A DNA stretch of 64,000 bases from an uncultured Dysgonomonas sp. (GCA_937995835.1 CALKIV010000002.1:813-64812), one strand, 5' to 3'; positions 40,051 through 46,643 are shown, counted from the first letter of the stretch. Numbers and translations are program-made. Notes: a model not told the origin generated them from the sequence alone.

Positions 40051-40086
40051 AAAAAAATAAGGGAGCCATATAAGAATGGCTCCCTT
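40051..40086 (-). terminator. Intrinsic terminator after the inositol-3-phosphate synthase gene
   Basis: Perfect 11-bp stem AAGGGAGCCAT/ATGGCTCCCTT with a 6-nt loop, followed by a T7 run on the minus strand. Confidence 0.75.
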
Positions 40087-40119
40087 AAGTTATCATTTAT
40101 TTACTAAATGCTAATGAAA

Positions 40120-41418
40120 TTAGTCGATAAAATCGATTGTTGTTTCACCTAACATTTGGCGTAAAGTATTTTTTAACTTCACATATTGAATGAACAAGTC
40201 ATGCTCTGCAATCTTTTCTGGCTCGTGCATTGGGCTCTTCAAGTAGAATGATAGCCAATCTTGGATACCAAACATACCAGCACGGTGTGCTAAGTCCATG
40301 AACAATACTAAGTCAAGACATAGTGGAGCTGCAAGAATTGAGTCACGGCATAGGAAGTCTACTTTCAACTGCATAGGATATCCCATCCATCCTGTGATGT
40401 CGATGTTATCCCATCCTTCTTTATTATCACCACGTGGTGGATAATAGTTGATACGAACTTTATGGTAGTAATCTTTATAAAGCTCTGGATATAATTCCGG
40501 TTGAAGAATATTATCAATAACTGAAAGTTTTGATTCTTCTTTTGTTTTGAATGATCCTGGATCGTCAAGAACTTCACCATCACGGTTACCCAAGATGTTT
40601 GTAGAGAACCATCCTTCAAGACCTAACATACGAGTTTTGATCATTGGAGCAAGAACAGTTTTCAACATTGTTTGACCAGTCTTGAAGTCTTTTCCTGCGA
40701 TAGGCACTTGATGTTTGTCTGCCATTTCCCACATAGCTGGGATATCCACTGTAAGGTTAGGAGCACCATTGATGTACCCAACGTTTTCAGCTAAAGCAGC
40801 ATAAGCATAAATATTAGATGGAGCAATTGCAGGATGATTTTCTTTCATTCCTTTTTCAAAAGCTGCCAATGTCTTATGAACATCTCCAAGTGGAGTAAAT
40901 ACTTCTGTACTACCACACCAAATCATCATCAAACGATCACATCCATTTTCTTTTTTGAAATTGCGGATATCTTCTCTTACTTGTTCCATCAAATCCCATT
41001 TTGTAGGAGCTGACTTCACCCAAGTACCGTGTAGACGTTTTACGAATTCTTGATCAAATACTGCTTTCATAGGTTTGATAGCAGCTAGTTCATCTTTCAC
41101 ATTGTTCAAGTGTTTTTCATCCAACACTTTTGCATAAGCAGATGCTTCATATAGATTTTCTTCAAATAGATCCCATCCTCCGAAAACCATGTCCTTCATG
41201 TCTGCTAAAGGCACAGCATCTTTAATTTTAGGGAATCGGTTTTCTTCCCTTTTACCTAGGCGCATAGTCGCCAATTGTGTGATTGAACCGATTGGCACAC
41301 CTGCACCCTTACGAGCTAGTAATGTACCTGCAATAAAAGTGGATGAAACGGCTCCACCAATTCCGACAACAAGAACACCAAGTTTTCCTTTGGCTTCTTT
41401 AATTTGAACTTTTCCCAT
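40120..41418 (-). CDS. ino1: Inositol-3-phosphate synthase (myo-inositol-1-phosphate synthase)
   Basis: 432 aa. NAD-binding N-terminus LGVLVVGIGGAVSSTFIAG and a MIPS-like core (NGAPN, GKDFKTGQT). Confidence 0.85.
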   Translation of the reverse strand: MGKVQIKEAKGKLGVLVVGIGGAVSSTFIAGTLLARKGAGVPIGSITQLATMRLGKREENRFPKIKDAVPLADMKDMVFGGWDLFEENLYEASAYAKVLDEKHLNNVKDELAAIKPMKAVFDQEFVKRLHGTWVKSAPTKWDLMEQVREDIRNFKKENGCDRLMMIWCGSTEVFTPLGDVHKTLAAFEKGMKENHPAIAPSNIYAYAALAENVGYINGAPNLTVDIPAMWEMADKHQVPIAGKDFKTGQTMLKTVLAPMIKTRMLGLEGWFSTNILGNRDGEVLDDPGSFKTKEESKLSVIDNILQPELYPELYKDYYHKVRINYYPPRGDNKEGWDNIDITGWMGYPMQLKVDFLCRDSILAAPLCLDLVLFMDLAHRAGMFGIQDWLSFYLKSPMHEPEKIAEHDLFIQYVKLKNTLRQMLGETTIDFID

Positions 41419-41680
41419 TTTTGTTTTTTAGTTTAAAATTTTTCTGCAACCCGCAGCATCCTTTTAACACGACCGTTTGGAGTAATACATATACATTGGG
41501 AAATGTATGTAGACTGCTGAAAACGATCTGTATAATAAAATCACTTTGATAATAATGCTACTTTATTTTGTTCTTCCAACCCGGACTTTTCTGTTAAGTG
41601 CTATTTTGAACAAGCGCTCAACTTCCATTATTAAAGTATGACACATCATCAACGCGACGTTTATTATCATTTCGACGAAC

Positions 41681-42406
41681 TTATGACAGCTTAAAGATCT
41701 CTTCTAGCTCCACAAAATCCGTTATTACAACATCTGCCGTTGCAGATTCGTTGTCTTTGCCCCATCCTTGACCTTTCAGCCAAATAGTTTTACAAGCATT
41801 TTTTTGGGCAGGTATTATATCTTTTTCATAGGAATCTCCTATCACAACAATACTTTCGGCAGGTAATCCTAGGGCTTCAACACCTAGTGTAAAGATTTTA
41901 GGATCCGGCTTTCTCACCCCCACAACTGCTGACTCGATGATCTGATCAAAGAAATCTAACAACTTGAAGTCACCAAGCACCGCTTGGACATTGCCATAGA
42001 AATTTGAGACCAACACCATTGGATACTTTTCTTTCAAAGATTTGAGCAATGGTATTTCTTTAGATATAATTTCTCTAGCGAAGGTATAGCATTGTTTCGA
42101 TATTCCAATAGAATATTCTTCTGTTTTCTTTCCTTCTGTTAAAAAACCTTTATCGATCAAATACTCTATTTGTATCTTGATCTTCTTTTGGAGCAACACA
42201 TGAAAGTTATCTTCCGGCAAGATCACTAAATTAGTGGCTAAGAATCGCTCTGCATGCACATAAGCTTCTTTAAACTGTTCCTTAGACACTGGCACTTCAT
42301 GTGCTTGATAGGCATCCCAGATAACCCAAGCCCAATGCTCGCCATTGCTATCTATCGTTCCTCCATAGTCAAAGATTATTCCTTTGATCTGTTCTACTTC
42401 AAACAT
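41681..42406 (-). CDS. HAD superfamily hydrolase (subfamily IA-like)
   Basis: Motif I IIFDYGGTID (no Asp at +2), motif II VSN, and C-terminal GDSYEKDI. 241 aa. Confidence 0.75.
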   Translation of the reverse strand: MFEVEQIKGIIFDYGGTIDSNGEHWAWVIWDAYQAHEVPVSKEQFKEAYVHAERFLATNLVILPEDNFHVLLQKKIKIQIEYLIDKGFLTEGKKTEEYSIGISKQCYTFAREIISKEIPLLKSLKEKYPMVLVSNFYGNVQAVLGDFKLLDFFDQIIESAVVGVRKPDPKIFTLGVEALGLPAESIVVIGDSYEKDIIPAQKNACKTIWLKGQGWGKDNESATADVVITDFVELEEIFKLS

Positions 42407-42417
42407 CTACTTTTCGT

Positions 42418-43344
42418 TTAACTGTATTTTCCTGCTTTTACGGCTTCAGAGAAACTTCTCGAAAACTTCTCATGCGTATAAATCATATGCACAAAGATAG
42501 CATTTAAAACGATCAACTCGAAAACAAAGTAAAGCCACGGCCAACCAATCAGAACCGAAACGAAGAGTGCTATCGCTCGTGTATTGAATGACAAGATGTT
42601 AGTCCACTTCATCATCGGAAGGCTCTTCGTTCTAAAATCATCTCTAAAAGTTTGTGGTGCAGCAGAAACACTTCCAAAAGTTTCGCGTAGCGTTTTAAAC
42701 ATTTCTTGCAAGCCCGGAGATAAATCTTCTTGTCCTTTGGTATAATTGGTATAGAAGGTTAAGACTAATTTCTCCCAAAAGTTACCTGTCCAAGTTAAAG
42801 TTTGATTTTTTTCTTTCAGCTCAAAAGTATTATCTAACTCACTTCCTTCTTCACCTTTTAGAAAAAGTAGATGAGCATTTCTGTAATAGTCTGCCATTGC
42901 TGCTTGCTTAGAATGGAAAATTCCGGTTACGATTGCAAGCACCCAAATCCAAATACCCCATTCAGGATATAAGCGCAAACAAATTGCAATATAGATAGAT
43001 GCAAACCATAGATTTCCGGCAAAGCCATCAAGAACTCTCCCTAATGCAGAAAACTGCTTGGTCATTCGCGCTAATTGTCCATCTGCGCTATCATAGGAGT
43101 TTGCCCAAACCAATAAAAATATTCCCAATAGTGTAATCCAAAGTTCCTGAAAGTAGAAACAAACACCTGCCCCCACACCAAGAAAGATGCTTGCGATGGT
43201 GACAGCATTGGGACTAACTCCAAGCTTTTGGAAGAGGAGTGCCCAACGATAGCCTATGGGACGATAAAAATATATATCAATAAATTCTTCGGTGTCGGTT
43301 GATTTTAGAGTCGACTCAAGGGTCGGTTTGTCTGTTGTTGTCAT
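42418..43344 (-). CDS. CDP-alcohol phosphatidyltransferase family membrane protein
   Basis: Signature DSADGQLAR-x8-GRVLD in a polytopic membrane protein of 308 aa. The position of the fourth conserved Asp reads Gly (LDGFAGN). Confidence 0.8.
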   Translation of the reverse strand: MTTTDKPTLESTLKSTDTEEFIDIYFYRPIGYRWALLFQKLGVSPNAVTIASIFLGVGAGVCFYFQELWITLLGIFLLVWANSYDSADGQLARMTKQFSALGRVLDGFAGNLWFASIYIAICLRLYPEWGIWIWVLAIVTGIFHSKQAAMADYYRNAHLLFLKGEEGSELDNTFELKEKNQTLTWTGNFWEKLVLTFYTNYTKGQEDLSPGLQEMFKTLRETFGSVSAAPQTFRDDFRTKSLPMMKWTNILSFNTRAIALFVSVLIGWPWLYFVFELIVLNAIFVHMIYTHEKFSRSFSEAVKAGKYS

Positions 43345-43619
43345 TTATCTTCTTCGTTATCTGAATAATGTCCGTAAGAATTAGCTCGCTTTACGCTATA
43401 TGCTTTCCAAAAGCAAAACGCAGAGAAGAGGAAGTAAAAACCTGCCACCCCCCATTTGCCGGCTACTTCATAGATTTTCAATAAAATATAAGGAAGCATT
43501 CCCTGCTTCAACCCTTGTTCTGTTTGATACAATTCATACCAATAGTATACGCCAATGGCCATGAAAAGACAACCCAGAAAAATGGTTATAATAATATAGA
43601 TTTTAGTTTTTTTGCTCAT
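43341..43619 (-). CDS. Small membrane protein (3 predicted TM helices), unknown function
   Basis: 92 aa. It overlaps both neighbours by 4 nt (translational coupling) and has an acidic C-terminal tail, SDNEEDK. Confidence 0.55.
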   Translation of the reverse strand: MSKKTKIYIIITIFLGCLFMAIGVYYWYELYQTEQGLKQGMLPYILLKIYEVAGKWGVAGFYFLFSAFCFWKAYSVKRANSYGHYSDNEEDK

Positions 43620-44539
43620 CGTCCTAGCTTGTGTAATAGTCTAAAAAACCATCCATTTTTTTCTTCAGTCAGGCTTTCTGAAACTTTTTTGTGAATACAC
43701 TCAGCTATTTTTGGTGCCGCAATCTCTCTGCATGGAGCAAAACTAGGCCAATCATTAAAGTCAATGATTTTAAAACTGCCATCTTTATCCACTACACAAT
43801 CACCACCATATACCTGTACATTCAGCACCTCGCCAGCTTTGTCACAAGCTTTTTTCAGTTCCTCAACAGAAAATTTAAACTCTTGTGCTTCACCATTGAT
43901 AGCCTCTAGTCCAAACTTACTATGACTCAAATCGAAAGGATAGAACCAATAAAAGAAATCGGTACCTGCTACTCCATAAAACTTCACCAAATCGCCCACT
44001 AAGTGCTCATTGATTACGGCATTGGGGATGCCTCTCAACCCGAATTCTTGTAGTATAGAAGTCACCTCCACCACATTTCTGGCATAAGATACATCTTCTC
44101 GATGTATGGCATGAGAGTCTCCTCGTTTGATCCAATAGGCTGGAGCTCGCATTTTCTCCAATTTTTCACTTGGATCTTCATCTACATTGAGAATTATACT
44201 TTTGGGATGTGGCAACTTATGTTGCAACATCAGTTTTGTCATATTTTCGCGAGCACAATTTTCTATTCCATAACCAGAATTAACGATCATTGCTCCTTTG
44301 TTCTCTGCTTTCTTCAAAGCTGATATAGTAGTTTTGTCTCTAGCCATACTGAAGATATGTTTTGCACTTACTTTACCCAATACAAATTCAGACTCAGTAA
44401 ACTCTTCAACATCGTACCCCATTTCGACCAAATGATCTACCACCAAATTGAATATTTTCCCATCGTTTCCGATGTGGTTAGGAGAATATTTCGTGTTACG
44501 CTTTACTCCTGCTATTTTTATTTTTTCTGGTTTTTTCAT
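43616..44539 (-). CDS. ATP-grasp fold protein, unknown substrate
   Basis: 307 aa. Motifs WIKRGDSHAIHREDV, GDLVKFYGV and VYGGDCVVDKDGSFKIIDFNDWPSF resemble ATP-grasp ligases and kinases. Confidence 0.6.
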   Translation of the reverse strand: MKKPEKIKIAGVKRNTKYSPNHIGNDGKIFNLVVDHLVEMGYDVEEFTESEFVLGKVSAKHIFSMARDKTTISALKKAENKGAMIVNSGYGIENCARENMTKLMLQHKLPHPKSIILNVDEDPSEKLEKMRAPAYWIKRGDSHAIHREDVSYARNVVEVTSILQEFGLRGIPNAVINEHLVGDLVKFYGVAGTDFFYWFYPFDLSHSKFGLEAINGEAQEFKFSVEELKKACDKAGEVLNVQVYGGDCVVDKDGSFKIIDFNDWPSFAPCREIAAPKIAECIHKKVSESLTEEKNGWFFRLLHKLGR

Positions 44540-44557
44540 CCCTTTATCGACTTACTT

Positions 44558-45265
44558 TCAAGAAAGTAAGAATTTTTCTGCTTTTGCAATATCTTCTGCA
44601 TGATCAACATCTACAATTTTAGTGAATGGATGTGCTTTCAATTGCAAACCGTCTTTCACTAACTGACGTTGGAAATTTCTCATTCGTGATTGTCCTGACT
44701 CTATGCATCCTTCCAATGTGGCGATCGCTTTTGGTGTCAATCCGTAGATTCCTCCTGAAATATATTGGCAGTCTGCTGCAGAGTCCAAAAATCCTTGAAT
44801 TGTCATATCTTCGTTATCCACATCTACATAAAGAGGCTTCTCATCATCAATATAGTCCGTTACAGCCATCACACCATCAGAAGTTTGATCTGCAATGAAT
44901 GCTTGAATATATTGTTTAAAGTCATCTTCTTTGAAGATTGTATCCACTGTGGTAAGGCAGAATTTACTGTCTCGAAGAAAGTTTCTCAACTCATAAAAGC
45001 TGTGCATAGAGCTTGGCGTAGATTTTACAACCACATTCAATGGAATATCTAGGCTCAAGTTTTGAACATATTCTTGCACCGAAGTCATTTCTTCATTCAC
45101 AATAATGCTAATCGATTTAGCATCATTTGCAAGAAAGATATCAATCAAGCGACGGATCATCTCTTTGCCATTCAACTTCACTAATGGTTTCGGCAACTTC
45201 ACGCCCTCCTCCACTAAGCGAGAGCCTTCTCCTGCCGCTATTATTGCATAATTAATCGTTTTCAT
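44558..45265 (-). CDS. Nucleotidyltransferase (sugar/alcohol-phosphate cytidylyl- or uridylyl-transferase fold)
   Basis: N-terminus AIIAAGEGSRLVEEGVKLPKPLVKLNG is the classic NTP_transferase signature. 235 aa. Confidence 0.8.
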   Translation of the reverse strand: MKTINYAIIAAGEGSRLVEEGVKLPKPLVKLNGKEMIRRLIDIFLANDAKSISIIVNEEMTSVQEYVQNLSLDIPLNVVVKSTPSSMHSFYELRNFLRDSKFCLTTVDTIFKEDDFKQYIQAFIADQTSDGVMAVTDYIDDEKPLYVDVDNEDMTIQGFLDSAADCQYISGGIYGLTPKAIATLEGCIESGQSRMRNFQRQLVKDGLQLKAHPFTKIVDVDHAEDIAKAEKFLLS

Positions 45266-45289: not shown

Positions 45290-46378
45290 TTAGTCATTAT
45301 CATTTCCTGACAAATCTAGTTCTTCGTTGTCAGATCCTCTTGCCACATAAAGTTTTTGCAATGGACTAGCATAAGCCTCATCATCAAATTTCCTGTTATT
45401 ATAAACATCGATAGCCATGTAGATTGCTTGACGCAATGACTCTTCGGATGCTACATTTTTTCCGGCTATACTATATCCTGTGCCATGTGCTGGCGAAGTA
45501 CGAACAATTGGTAAACCTGCCGTAAAGTTTACACCTTCTTCCATAGCAAGCGCTTTGAAAGGAGCCAATCCTTGATCGTGATACATAGCAAGTACACCAT
45601 CAAACCTTTTGAAGTCGCCTGAACCAAAAAAGCCATCTGCAGCAAAAGGACCAAAGCAAAGTAGCTTTTCGTCTTGCAATTCACGGATAGCAGGAATGAT
45701 CACATCATTTTCCTCTGAACCTAGGAGTCCATTTTCTCCAGCATGAGGATTGAGTGAAAGGATTGCTATGCGAGGTTTTCCGACTCTAAAGTCTCTTCGT
45801 AGAGAGTGATTGAATATTCTTGCTGCCTCTTTTATTTTATCTTTAGTCACCTTTTGAGGGACTTCCGAAAGAGCTGTGTGACCTGTCACTAGAGCTACAC
45901 GCAGTTCGTTAGAAGCTAAAATCATCAGACTTTTGTCTCCTTCATTTGCAAACTTTTGTTCTAAATACTCTGTATGACCAGGAAAGTGAAAATCTTCACT
46001 TTGTATGTTATCTTTATTGATAGGAGCAGTTACAAGTACATCTATATACTTCTTTTTCAGATCATCAGTTGCTCTTTCTAAGGCTGATAGTGCAGCAGCA
46101 CCCGCCTCTTTGCTCGATTCTCCAAGTTCTATCTTTACCTTCTCATCAATGCAGTTGATAATATTTACTTTATTAGCAACAGCTGTTCTGGTGTCTGGTA
46201 TTTGATTCAGATTCACAGCTTGCAGATTCATCACTTTTCGGTGATACGAAGCTACTTTTTGTGAACCATAAATCACAGGGATACACATCTCGGCTAAGCG
46301 CAAATCGGCAAAAGCCTTTAGGATAACTTCATAGCCTATCCCGTTGATGTCTCCATGTGTAATTCCTACTCTTATCAT
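45290..46378 (-). CDS. pdxA: 4-hydroxythreonine-4-phosphate dehydrogenase
   Basis: 362 aa with GITHGDINGIGYEV, FPGHTEYL and SPAHGT motifs. Confidence 0.9.
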   Translation of the reverse strand: MIRVGITHGDINGIGYEVILKAFADLRLAEMCIPVIYGSQKVASYHRKVMNLQAVNLNQIPDTRTAVANKVNIINCIDEKVKIELGESSKEAGAAALSALERATDDLKKKYIDVLVTAPINKDNIQSEDFHFPGHTEYLEQKFANEGDKSLMILASNELRVALVTGHTALSEVPQKVTKDKIKEAARIFNHSLRRDFRVGKPRIAILSLNPHAGENGLLGSEENDVIIPAIRELQDEKLLCFGPFAADGFFGSGDFKRFDGVLAMYHDQGLAPFKALAMEEGVNFTAGLPIVRTSPAHGTGYSIAGKNVASEESLRQAIYMAIDVYNNRKFDDEAYASPLQKLYVARGSDNEELDLSGNDND

Positions 46379-46635: not shown

Positions 46636-46643
46636 CAAAGGTA
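46636..46643 (-). promoter_or_regulatory. -7 promoter motif TACCTTTG inside the rlmN-pdxA spacer
   Basis: Exact TAnnTTTG on the minus strand, about 258 nt upstream of the pdxA ATG. Confidence 0.3.

Follow-up and report, generated by a model that had tools for sequence, protein, structure and literature searches.

The six genes at positions 40120-45265 of the window (the whole 64,000-nucleotide stretch of DNA analysed, from an uncultured Dysgonomonas sp.) probably form an alternative inositol-lipid operon that would use a CDP-inositol route and include a paired ITPK-like kinase and HAD hydrolase. The CDP-inositol reading is the best supported for this cluster, which matches a type already known, being the Dysgonomonas version of the B. 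vulgatus-type "alternative" inositol-lipid cluster of gut Bacteroidales. The importance of the cluster lies in a transferase that, like all the relatives examined, is without the usual catalytic aspartate, and in an overlooked enzyme resembling inositol-phosphate kinases, a regular member of such clusters that is absent from the 2022 account of the cluster type.

Gene cluster, conserved module and genome context

As the first-pass annotation had claimed, six ORFs lie on the minus strand between 40120 and 45265. In the direction of transcription they encode a soluble nucleotidyltransferase (NTP; 44558-45265, 235 aa), an ATP-grasp protein (GRASP; 43616-44539, 307 aa), a 92-aa membrane protein with two helices (MP92; 43341-43619) whose gene overlaps each neighbour by 4 nt, a CDP-alcohol phosphotransferase (CAPT; 42418-43344, 308 aa), an HAD-IA type hydrolase (HAD; 41681-42406, 241 aa) and, beyond a 262-nt spacer (41419-41680), myo-inositol-3-phosphate synthase (MIPS; 40120-41418, 432 aa). 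Four of the six proteins have Pfam backing: NTP (PF00483, NTP_transferase, 48.5 bits), CAPT (PF01066, CDP-OH_P_transf, 47.5 bits), HAD (PF00702, HAD Hydrolase, 60.5 bits) and MIPS (PF07994, NAD_binding_5, 354.7 bits; PF01658, Inos-1-P_synth, 117 bits), the last being 59-82% identical to orthologues of related clusters. MP92 matched no family in Pfam and NCBIfam searches and no counterpart was found at 100 other Bacteroidales loci; homologues of 90 and 95 aa (61% and 47% identity) sit at the corresponding place in two related contigs, and MP92 is a real, accessory gene limited to close relatives.

The cluster is not a chance arrangement, since 19 of 20 sampled Bacteroidales genomes show the same gene order. 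Across 100 Bacteroidales loci, made up of these 20 genomes and 80 named loci, the four-gene module NTP-GRASP-CAPT-HAD is present in about 86; all four genes occur in 19 of the sampled genomes and 67 of the named loci, and two further loci carry an NTP-GRASP fusion. Natural fusions link the module proteins in nearly every combination (NTP+CAPT, NTP+GRASP+CAPT, GRASP+CAPT, CAPT+HAD, NTP+GRASP). The triple fusion is present in two independent assemblies and the CAPT-HAD fusion in loci P0131 and P0137, while a GRASP-HAD fusion is a lead from the ESM Atlas only. The carriers are mesophilic Bacteroidales, gut or insect-associated, and their clusters variably include flippase-like (HpnL/MprF-type) or GtrA-like genes. 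In seven loci a complete BT_1525/1524/1523/1522-like set is nested between GRASP and CAPT. Five genomes carry the module and no MIPS was found in them; all five keep HAD, fused to or adjoining CAPT, which favours a role for HAD after the transferase. By analogy, these genomes fit the use of exogenous inositol by Tannerella forsythia, which makes inositol-phosphoceramide from exogenous inositol only and has a BEPIS homologue and no recognised kinase (PMC4587543).

The transcription unit probably runs pdxA-NTP-GRASP-MP92-CAPT-HAD-spacer-MIPS-terminator. The pdxA gene (4-hydroxythreonine-4-phosphate dehydrogenase; 45290-46378, minus strand; TIGR00557, 367.5 bits, cutoff 290) lies 24 nt upstream of NTP, and the two are probably co-transcribed. 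It adjoins the module in 10 of the 20 sampled and 38 of the 80 named loci, and is a conserved neighbour without an assigned pathway step. A candidate Bacteroidetes -7 promoter motif, TACCTTTG (46636-46643, minus strand), lies upstream of pdxA; in a motif scan it was the sole intergenic TAnnTTTG on the minus strand from rlmN to the terminator after MIPS, the HAD-MIPS spacer having none. A terminator-like hairpin (40058-40087, minus strand; 12-bp stem with 6 G-C pairs, T7 tail), 33 nt past the MIPS stop, is the probable end of the unit, as a consensus match only.

The genome to which the cluster belongs is 100% complete by marker genes. Profile searches of it found no BT_1522- or BT_1523-type genes; the PI-DHC synthase profile (NF052609) gave no match, and that for PIP synthase (NF052561) gave nothing above noise. 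PF01066 detected only two genes, and CAPT is the only candidate inositol transferase. The genome does have serine palmitoyltransferase (NF047600, 679 bits, cutoff 640).

The four module enzymes

The CAPT signature reads D85-x2-D88-G89-x2-A92-R93-x8-G102-x3-D106-x3-G110. The suggestion that glycine replaces the fourth aspartate (D4), which was to fall if proper alignment recovered the aspartate, is borne out: in HMMER alignments G110 stands opposite D4 of AF2299, IPCT-DIPPS, CHPT1 and PgsA, and the position is glycine in 99 of 100 loci (80/80 named, 19/20 sampled), with glutamate in the remaining one (L038). The next residue in the Dysgonomonas protein is Asn111, not aspartate. A set of 37 diverse homologues shows no variation at seven of the eight signature residues or at many further positions. 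To judge from the sequence, the role of the canonical base would have to fall to the substrate, the adjacent residue or conserved polar positions elsewhere (H144, D152, E169). The AF2 model of CAPT (pLDDT 96) has as its closest solved fold, in an exhaustive fold search, the CDP-inositol-using IPCT-DIPPS 4mnd (Z 17.3, rmsd 2.7 Å over 188 residues); PIP synthases reach Z 14.7 and 14.3, and CHPT1 reaches 10.3. By sequence, its nearest solved relatives are AF2299 (7e-5) and IPCT-DIPPS (4e-3), both of which use soluble CDP-alcohols.

NTP, whose R16, K26 and D108 do not vary among 19 orthologues, has its best NCBIfam match in the IPCT half of NF041135 (IPCT/DIPPS; E 1.9e-14) and its best single-sequence PDB match in 4jd0, the T. 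maritima IPCT (bioRxiv 10.1101/2025.01.09.632243). The family profile, however, places the heptose-1-P guanylyltransferase HddC (1e-10) ahead of T. maritima IPCT (1.2e-8) and further IPCTs (8.6e-7, 5.7e-6). Moreover, CpgD, whose top structural match is also T. maritima IPCT, uses 3-phosphoglycerate (bioRxiv 10.1101/2025.01.09.632243), a precedent suggesting that IPCT-like enzymes can take other phospho-acids. NTP is thus a putative CTP:inositol-phosphate cytidylyltransferase whose substrate is not fixed by sequence alone. The CDP-inositol interpretation put forward in the first-pass annotation is therefore partly supported: the sequence and fold of CAPT, the IPCT/DIPPS-like fusions, the adjacent MIPS and the lack of BT_1522- and BT_1523-type genes speak for it, whereas the NTP profile prefers HddC. 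Its statement that such a route was proposed from genomics only holds for Bacteroidales but not beyond, since biochemical proof of BEPIS, a Rhodothermus transferase that acts from CDP-inositol onto a lipid, is described in a paper citing the original study (Jorge et al. 2015, cited in PMC4587543).

GRASP had no Pfam match, and PF05770 was touched weakly by just 2 of its 22 orthologues. Its AF2 model (pLDDT 92.9) shows an ATP-grasp fold (Z 19.5-21.6; LysX 21.6, ITPK1 19.8), and K138, K186, D247, D260 and N262 (Mg/ATP residues) are invariant. The best PDB matches of the family profile are ITPKs (1z2n, 3.2e-7; 7pup, 5.3e-5; human ITPK1, 1.7e-3, with four sequences of it at about 2e-3), while PsnB, ArgX and glutathione synthetase rank lower. 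These matches point to a putative ITPK-like inositol or inositol-phosphate kinase; ITPK1 phosphorylates Ins1P and Ins3P, and ITPKs have been reported in eukaryotes and Asgard archaea (PNAS paper, PMC6900528). As the fold ties with or slightly favours the LysX/RimK ligases, GRASP may instead be a ligase. The gene is present in 76 of the 80 named and 19 of the 20 sampled loci, and in some it is fused to NTP, CAPT or both; being conserved like the other three module genes and fused to them, it is not a bystander. The first-pass annotation had left this core, ITPK-like protein unexplained.

Motif I of HAD, F12-D13-Y14-G15-G16-T17, has glycine at the Asp+2 position, as had been read from the sequence, and this glycine is found in 77 of 77 copies. 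The nucleophile D13, G15, T17, N135, K166, D191 and D196 are the same in all of 19 orthologues. Members of the DxxGT haloacid-dehalogenase-like HAD branch typically lack Asp+2, and its absence does not on its own argue against hydrolase activity; HAD is the putative pathway phosphatase.

Proposed pathway and competing explanations

By its family assignment, MIPS would convert glucose-6-phosphate to inositol-3-phosphate (Ins3P). The soluble NTP would then form a CDP-inositol species from an inositol phosphate and CTP, and the DIPPS-like membrane enzyme CAPT would move the phospho-inositol head group onto a lipid alcohol in the membrane. Since serine palmitoyltransferase is encoded in the genome, the acceptor is most likely dihydroceramide, with diacylglycerol as a possible alternative. 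Synthesis would end in phosphoinositol-dihydroceramide (PI-DHC) or PI and would not require BT_1522-/BT_1523-type enzymes. The kinase and HAD would act as an obligatory phosphorylation/dephosphorylation pair of the same pathway. Tentatively, we favour an order in which the kinase precedes activation and transfer and HAD comes last: the kinase would make an inositol bisphosphate from Ins3P, or phosphorylate imported inositol, NTP would activate this product, CAPT would transfer phospho-inositol-phosphate, and HAD would take off the leftover phosphate, in parallel with PIP, DIPP and PGP logic. More doubtful is an order in which HAD acts first and releases inositol from Ins3P; the kinase would then add a phosphate back, or would act on imported inositol, before CTP activation. 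Besides the HddC preference of NTP and the ligase-like fold of GRASP, further points count against our explanation as a whole. The full BT-type set in seven clusters would be hard to understand if the two routes led to one and the same lipid, and both D4 of CAPT and the Asp+2 general acid of HAD, expected for a phosphomonoesterase, are missing.

The nested sets also bear on the unlikely reading that the module makes something other than the plain PI or PI-DHC known from B. thetaiotaomicron, whether with a different head group (the NTP substrate being other than an inositol monophosphate), with a different linkage isomer, or with phospho-inositol added to another envelope acceptor, be it a lipid, a glycan or lipid A. 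They suggest that the two routes are not redundant, and the flippase-like or GtrA-like members, the CpgD precedent with an NTP specificity not set by sequence, and the L-1-linked isomer that CDP-inositol from Ins3P would yield all agree with another product. However, module-only genomes, this one included, have an adjacent MIPS and no other inositol-lipid genes, and the lipid made by the carriers B. vulgatus and P. veroralis cannot be told apart from PI-DHC by MS (PMC9246714). We consider quite improbable the three-enzyme scheme of Heaver et al. 2022 (PMC9246714), in which NTP makes CDP-inositol from Ins3P, CAPT makes PI with diacylglycerol, an AUR1-like HAD moves phospho-inositol from PI to dihydroceramide and the ATP-grasp protein is a bystander. 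A CAPT-HAD fusion, reported for P. veroralis (PMC9246714) and found here in the two loci named above, is in its favour; yet HAD is a soluble hydrolase whose nucleophile, Lys and Asp motifs are standard, the known synthases of IPC and PI-DHC belong to the PAP2-type membrane proteins (NF052609), and GRASP matches the other three in conservation and is fused to them.

MIPS, an IPCT-like NTP, a DIPPS-like CAPT and a phosphatase are the exact enzyme set for di-myo-inositol phosphate (DIP), and no solved fold lies closer to CAPT than that of DIPPS. A soluble inositol phosphodiester (DIP or glycerophosphoinositol), with CAPT as DIPPS and HAD as DIPP phosphatase, nevertheless seems very improbable: the mesophilic carriers are unlike known DIP producers, DIP not being known outside (hyper)thermophiles, and GRASP would be left without a role in a cluster with membrane accessory genes. 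Carriers also make inositol sphingolipids without another candidate transferase (PMC9246714). Least credible of all is a catalytically dead or merely regulatory CAPT, with inositol phosphate going to non-lipid uses. D4 has been described as absolutely conserved, and its change to Asn (D93N) nearly abolishes activity of the M. tuberculosis PIP synthase (PMC4634129). Against this stand the invariance of the other signature residues, the near-fixed glycine, which suggests that purifying selection maintains a working site, and the lack of another candidate inositol transferase in the genome.

Comparison with known systems

The closest counterpart is the B. (Phocaeicola) vulgatus cluster (BVU_RS13095 NTP, RS13105 phosphatidyltransferase, RS13115 HAD; Heaver et al., Nat Microbiol 2022, PMC9246714), of a type widespread in Prevotella, Bacteroides and Parabacteroides, whose carriers without BT-type genes make PI-DHC (PMC9246714). 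This alternative cluster was predicted, without confirmation, to use CDP-inositol, and no biochemical or genetic test of its genes has been reported (PMC9246714; PMC10191378). In both clusters NTP, CAPT and HAD adjoin MIPS, BT_1522/23/25-type genes are absent and a Kennedy-like CDP-inositol route is predicted. Compared with the BVU genes as published, the Dysgonomonas copy adds the 92-aa membrane protein; the published account assigns HAD as PI-DHC synthase and is silent on the ATP-grasp gene and on the glycines at D4 and at HAD Asp+2 (PMC9246714).

As far as its description in the citing literature goes, the MIPS-IPCT-BEPIS operon of Rhodothermus marinus, in the same phylum and likewise including MIPS, is the only experimentally shown route from CDP-inositol to a lipid alcohol; as described, it has three genes, neither ATP-grasp nor HAD, and a dialkylether glycerol acceptor. 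The Rhodothermia CAPT homologues that we reached, the BEPIS sequence itself not among them, are 27-38% identical, keep the canonical D4 and had no MIPS/IPCT context. In Environ Microbiol 2015, Jorge, Borges and Santos reportedly found that Rhodothermus BEPIS gives the L-1-linked isomer.

NTP aligns full-length to the IPCTs of both Archaeoglobus fulgidus (4mnd) and T. maritima (4jd0), natural NTP+CAPT fusions mimic the bifunctional IPCT/DIPPS architecture, and a phosphatase completes the DIP pathway too. That system differs in its soluble product and in keeping D4 in DIPPS; identity is about 17%, and CAPT has a helical insertion of about 90 residues (about 165-250) and conserved extra H144, Q147, D152 and R155. 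GRASP has its ATP-grasp fold in common with the ITPK family (E. histolytica, human ITPK1, Arabidopsis ITPK4), but is only about 13% identical, lacks a PF05770 match and has a fold score no better than with LysX/RimK. The BT-type set and the alternative module coexist in hybrid clusters, unlike in this genome. In the B. thetaiotaomicron BT_1522-1526 and mycobacterial PIP synthase/PIP phosphatase route, MIPS is likewise the first enzyme, a dedicated phosphatase acts after a CDP-alcohol phosphotransferase, and the end products are PI and PI-DHC; there, however, CDP activates the lipid (as CDP-DAG), and PIP synthase carries all four residues of the D1-D4 signature.

Gene content, order and conservation of the module

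The cluster singled out in the first-pass annotation consists, as described there, of six same-strand ORFs, all of which were found on the minus strand at the coordinates listed: a nucleotidyltransferase (NTP, 44558-45265), an ATP-grasp protein (GRASP, 43616-44539), a 92-aa membrane protein (MP92, 43341-43619), a CDP-alcohol phosphotransferase (CAPT, 42418-43344), a HAD hydrolase (HAD, 41681-42406) and a myo-inositol-3-phosphate synthase (MIPS, 40120-41418). Both Pfam and NCBIfam support the assignments of NTP, CAPT, HAD and MIPS, with CAPT scoring 47.5 bits against PF01066 (gathering cutoff 22) and both MIPS domains lying above their cutoffs (PF07994, 354.7 bits; PF01658, 117 bits). GRASP has no Pfam match, but its AF2 model has the ATP-grasp fold.

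The gaps between consecutive genes from NTP to HAD are 18, -4, -4 and 11 nt, followed by 262 nt between HAD and MIPS, a spacer in which a motif scan found no TAnnTTTG. The pdxA gene (45290-46378, minus strand) lies 24 nt upstream of NTP and is itself preceded by a Bacteroidetes-type TAnnTTTG motif (46636-46643), the single intergenic one on the minus strand between rlmN and the end of the cluster; a strong terminator-like hairpin (40058-40087, minus strand) lies 3' of MIPS. Together, motif and hairpin bracket what is probably one eight-gene transcription unit. A sigma-70 scan was uninformative: it returned 32 sites, with 27 expected, and its promoter model is of the wrong type for Bacteroidetes.

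In an even sample of 201 Bacteroidales genomes, a CAPT homologue was present in 30, and 20 loci were extracted. All but one of these 20 have the order NTP-GRASP-CAPT-HAD (hereafter, the module), with an optional gene before HAD and usually MIPS next. A second set comprised the 80 closest Bacteroidales loci listed, from Dysgonomonas, Parabacteroides, Tannerella, Muribaculaceae, Bacteroides and Prevotellaceae, the closest named CAPT homologues being those of Dysgonomonas (67-75% identity). CAPT is present in 80/80 of these loci, HAD in 77, GRASP in 76, NTP in 69 (and in two more as a fusion to GRASP), and MIPS within 8 kb in 48. Contig ends explain some of the missing genes; the MAG contigs L042 and L045, each with a close CAPT homologue, are genuine exceptions, as neither NTP nor GRASP was found in the 8 kb upstream and, in L045, HAD was not found either. 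The CAPT of L042 is 76% identical to that of Dysgonomonas despite the Prevotella label of the contig, which suggests mis-binning. In 10 of the 20 sampled and 38 of the 80 closest named loci, pdxA immediately precedes the module, a conserved neighbourhood seen in several families.

Gene fusions involve each member of the module. NTP, GRASP and CAPT are joined in an 818-aa triple fusion found in two independent assemblies, and pairwise fusions exist of NTP with CAPT, of GRASP with CAPT (four representatives), of CAPT with HAD (two) and of NTP with GRASP (L025 and L038); a GRASP-HAD fusion cluster is an ESM Atlas lead only. The GRASP gene, which is missing from the published scheme, is thus a core member of the module on a par with NTP, CAPT and HAD.

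The accessory genes vary. A gene for an HpnL/MprF-type flippase-like protein lies between CAPT and HAD in 7/20 sampled and 7/80 closest named loci, and the slot between GRASP and CAPT, filled by MP92 in the window, elsewhere holds GtrA-like genes or a set of genes resembling BT_1522-1525 of B. thetaiotaomicron (BT-type set). MP92 is a genuine gene confined to close relatives: in L136 and L138 this slot is occupied by 90- and 95-aa homologues (61% and 47% identical), which have a GKWGVA motif in common with it, and none was found in 100 other loci, including those of named Dysgonomonas species.

Predicted activities of the four enzymes

The CAPT signature reads D85xxD88G89xxA92R93-x8-G102xxxD106xxxG110. 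Seven of the eight residues of the CDP-alcohol phosphotransferase signature (D85, D88, G89, A92, R93, G102 and D106) are therefore present, and the fourth Asp (D4) is Gly110. The replacement suggested in the first-pass annotation was borne out by HMMER alignments, which place G110 opposite D4 of four solved enzymes: AF2299, CHPT1, PgsA and the archaeal bifunctional enzyme IPCT-DIPPS. D4 is held to be the catalytic base and counted among "eight absolutely conserved" residues, and the D93N substitution nearly abolishes the activity of M. tuberculosis PIP synthase (PMC4634129, PMC6506517). Glycine occupies this position in 80/80 closest named loci and 19/20 sampled loci (99/100), the exception, L038, having Glu; D4 is kept in distant CAPT homologues (27-38% identical, some from Rhodothermia) and in the BT_1523-like PIP synthases encoded in the same clusters at hybrid loci. 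A whole CDP-alcohol phosphotransferase clade thus lacks the residue thought to be the catalytic base. A shift of D4 by one residue would suit the 75 of the 80 closest named loci in which Asp follows the Gly, but it is ruled out as a general answer by the Gly-Asn of the window CAPT and of 97/120 closest homologues, and by other members with Gly-Ile or Gly-Val. The conservation among CAPT homologues of the other seven signature residues, together with P45, Q147, H144, D152, R155 and E169, speaks for an enzyme that is active but works by a modified mechanism.

The AF2 model of CAPT (pLDDT 96) has the six-TM CDP-AP fold, and its best fold match is the DIPPS domain of A. fulgidus IPCT-DIPPS (4mnd; Z 17.3, rmsd 2.7 Å, 188 residues), ahead of PIP synthases (6h5a, Z 14.7; 5d92, Z 14.3) and CHPT1 (Z 10.3). 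The sequence ranking agrees with this fold ranking, and the two point to a soluble CDP-alcohol as the predicted donor. Two of the D4-keeping Rhodothermia homologues, from Rhodocaloribacter and a Rhodothermia MAG (L123:3875-5784 and L121:6001-9576), lie one beside a PfkB-family kinase and the other beside ACP and KASIII genes; neither MIPS nor IPCT was found next to them.

In NCBIfam, NTP best matches the IPCT half of NF041135 (53.5 bits, well short of the cutoff of 580 set for this bifunctional model), and its top hit in a single-sequence PDB search is the inositol-1-phosphate cytidylyltransferase of T. maritima (4jd0; bioRxiv 10.1101/2025.01.09.632243). R16, K26 and D108 of NTP align with active-site residues of this enzyme and are invariant in 19 orthologues. 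In the ranking by the NTP family profile, however, the heptose-1-phosphate guanylyltransferase HddC came first (1e-10), ahead of the T. maritima IPCT (1.2e-8) and other IPCTs (about 1e-6). Furthermore, Caulobacter CpgD has the same IPCT as its top structural match, yet acts on 3-phosphoglycerate (bioRxiv 10.1101/2025.01.09.632243). Given this ranking and this precedent, the putative inositol-phosphate substrate of NTP is assigned from genomic context and not from sequence.

Motif I of HAD reads FDYGGT and, as the first-pass annotation had noted, lacks the Asp at the +2 position; the residue there, Gly15, is Gly in 19/19 aligned orthologues and 77/77 further copies. HAD is thus without the DxD general acid/base, and has the motif I-IV nucleophile, Ser/Thr, Lys and acidic pair. 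In the 19 aligned orthologues, the nucleophile D13, T17, S134/N135, K166 and D191/D196 show little or no variation, and D19, H24, W25, Y49 and E53 are invariant. The closest solved relatives belong to the DxxGT haloacid-dehalogenase-like branch (PH0459, PH1655 and L-2-haloacid dehalogenases). HAD is probably an active hydrolase in which the acid/base is supplied from elsewhere.

The AF2 model of GRASP is a three-domain ATP-grasp structure (pLDDT 92.9), and K138, K186, D247, D260 and N262, invariant in 22 orthologues, are consistent with an active ATP-grasp site. For the window protein and 21 orthologues, the Pfam matches were scattered and weak; PF05770, absent from the window GRASP at E ≤ 1, was matched by 2/22 orthologues (best E 0.024), and an ESM Atlas lead places it on roughly half of an NTP-GRASP fusion cluster. 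A single-sequence PDB search found nothing. A search of all PDB sequences with the GRASP family profile ranked ITPK1 of E. histolytica first (1z2n, 3.2e-7), followed by Arabidopsis ITPK4 (7pup, 5.3e-5), PsnB (7drm, 2.1e-4), four human ITPK1 sequences (about 2e-3) and ArgX (3vpb, 8e-3), with glutathione synthetase above 1. ITPK1 phosphorylates Ins1P and Ins3P (PMC6900528). Fold scores do not tell the two groups apart: they are 21.6 and 21.4 (Z) for the ligases LysX and RimK, and 19.8 and 19.5 for ITPK1 and PPIP5K2. Foldseek and VIA-align thus confirm the ATP-grasp fold but leave ligase and inositol kinase side by side, and GRASP may instead be a ligase. Our best reading is that GRASP is a candidate inositol or inositol-phosphate kinase.

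Possible pathway order in the light of MIPS-less and hybrid loci

The order in which the enzymes would act can be considered in the light of five module-carrying genomes (three Tannerella sp., P. distasonis and P. chinchillae; completeness not reported) in which MIPS was not found. T. forsythia makes inositol-phosphoceramide from exogenous inositol alone, and has a homologue of BEPIS, the CDP-inositol-using lipid transferase of Rhodothermus, and no recognised kinase or IPCT (PMC4587543). No consistent inositol transporter was found beside the MIPS-less modules of Tannerella and Parabacteroides, the neighbouring genes being unrelated and including one MFS and one Asp-Al_Ex permease. Since CDP-inositol can be made from free inositol only with a kinase, and since GRASP is the sole ATP-using enzyme in the module, GRASP is a candidate for this step, and for the inositol kinase so far missing in Tannerella-type organisms, which rely on host inositol. 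HAD is kept in all five MIPS-less genomes, where it adjoins or is fused with CAPT, which is easier to reconcile with a role after transfer than with removal of phosphate from the MIPS product. On these grounds we tentatively favour the order kinase, NTP, CAPT, HAD, which would imply a phosphorylated lipid intermediate; alternatively, HAD may act first, followed by kinase, NTP and CAPT.

In L027 (5515-8552) and in L068, L097, L098, L112, L118 and L120, GRASP and CAPT flank a complete BT-type set. It comprises PgpA-like, GtrA-like, PIP synthase (NF052561, 292 bits) and PI-DHC synthase (NF052609, 532 bits, above cutoff) genes resembling BT_1525/1524/1523/1522, and these hybrid loci therefore hold both inositol-lipid routes. 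In view of the PgpA/BT_1525-like ORF of L027, we rejected the idea that HAD serves hybrid clusters as their PIP phosphatase. With two complete routes in one cluster, the products or linkages of the module and of the BT-type route may differ.

Marker genes put the completeness of the window's genome at 100%. No more than two PF01066 genes were detected there, and neither a PI-DHC synthase (NF052609) nor, above noise, a BT_1523-type PIP synthase was found; any inositol lipids, if made, would thus have to come from this cluster. The genome encodes a serine palmitoyltransferase (G000:C17, L128:1468-2658, minus strand; NF047600, 679 bits, above the equivalog cutoff), from which we infer that the organism probably produces sphingolipids, with ceramide on hand as an acceptor.

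A more far-reaching reading, which we offer tentatively and consider rather unlikely, is that the Bacteroidales module is a four-enzyme pathway unlike every characterised inositol-lipid route. An ITPK-type kinase would supply the inositol phosphate for CDP activation, as a bisphosphate or as the phosphate of imported inositol, the D4-less CAPT would transfer the CDP-activated species directly to ceramide, and the HAD lacking Asp+2 would trim the lipid product. If true, Bacteria would have their first ITPK-like inositol-phosphate kinase of defined role, and the CDP-AP superfamily a new catalytic solution.

Relation to known inositol-lipid clusters

The CDP-inositol route suggested in the first-pass annotation is the best reading on hand, although it is already a published, biochemically open prediction (PMC9246714), so that the annotation rediscovered it while adding the two sequence details in CAPT and HAD. 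Heaver et al. 2022 described the alternate cluster of an NTP transferase, a CDP-alcohol phosphatidyltransferase and a HAD hydrolase beside MIPS, and reported that Bacteroides and Prevotella carry next to MIPS either this cluster or the BT_1522/23/25 set (PMC9246714). They proposed that CDP-inositol is made and passed to DAG, and that a HAD-mediated step then leads to PI-DHC, a route they themselves call unconfirmed (PMC9246714). Our literature search found no later paper confirming or revising this pathway, nor functional work on it. Transfer of phospho-inositol from CDP-inositol to lipid has been demonstrated in Rhodothermus marinus (BEPIS; Jorge et al. 2015, as cited in PMC4587543). The alternative cluster is reported to be about four times commoner than the B. 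thetaiotaomicron-type cluster in Prevotella, and is also carried by Phocaeicola vulgatus and P. dorei, both of them dominant species of the human gut; in gut and oral Bacteroidales, inositol sphingolipids and PI influence capsule expression, antimicrobial-peptide resistance and fitness in the host (PMC9246714).

In the window, the three enzymes of that alternate cluster are likewise encoded beside a MIPS homologue, and loci of Bacteroides, Prevotellaceae, Parabacteroides and Muribaculaceae have the same gene order. The locus was assigned to this B. vulgatus-type cluster by gene content and order, the sequences compared being orthologues from other Bacteroides genomes, and is a new member of this known, uncharacterised cluster type. 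To its description we add the loss of D4 throughout the clade, an HAD Asp+2 position that is invariably Gly, an ITPK-like fourth enzyme, MIPS-less modules and nested hybrid clusters, all of which make the open question easier to test. The working model of the alternative cluster would accordingly grow from three enzymes to four by the addition of a putative ITPK-like kinase.
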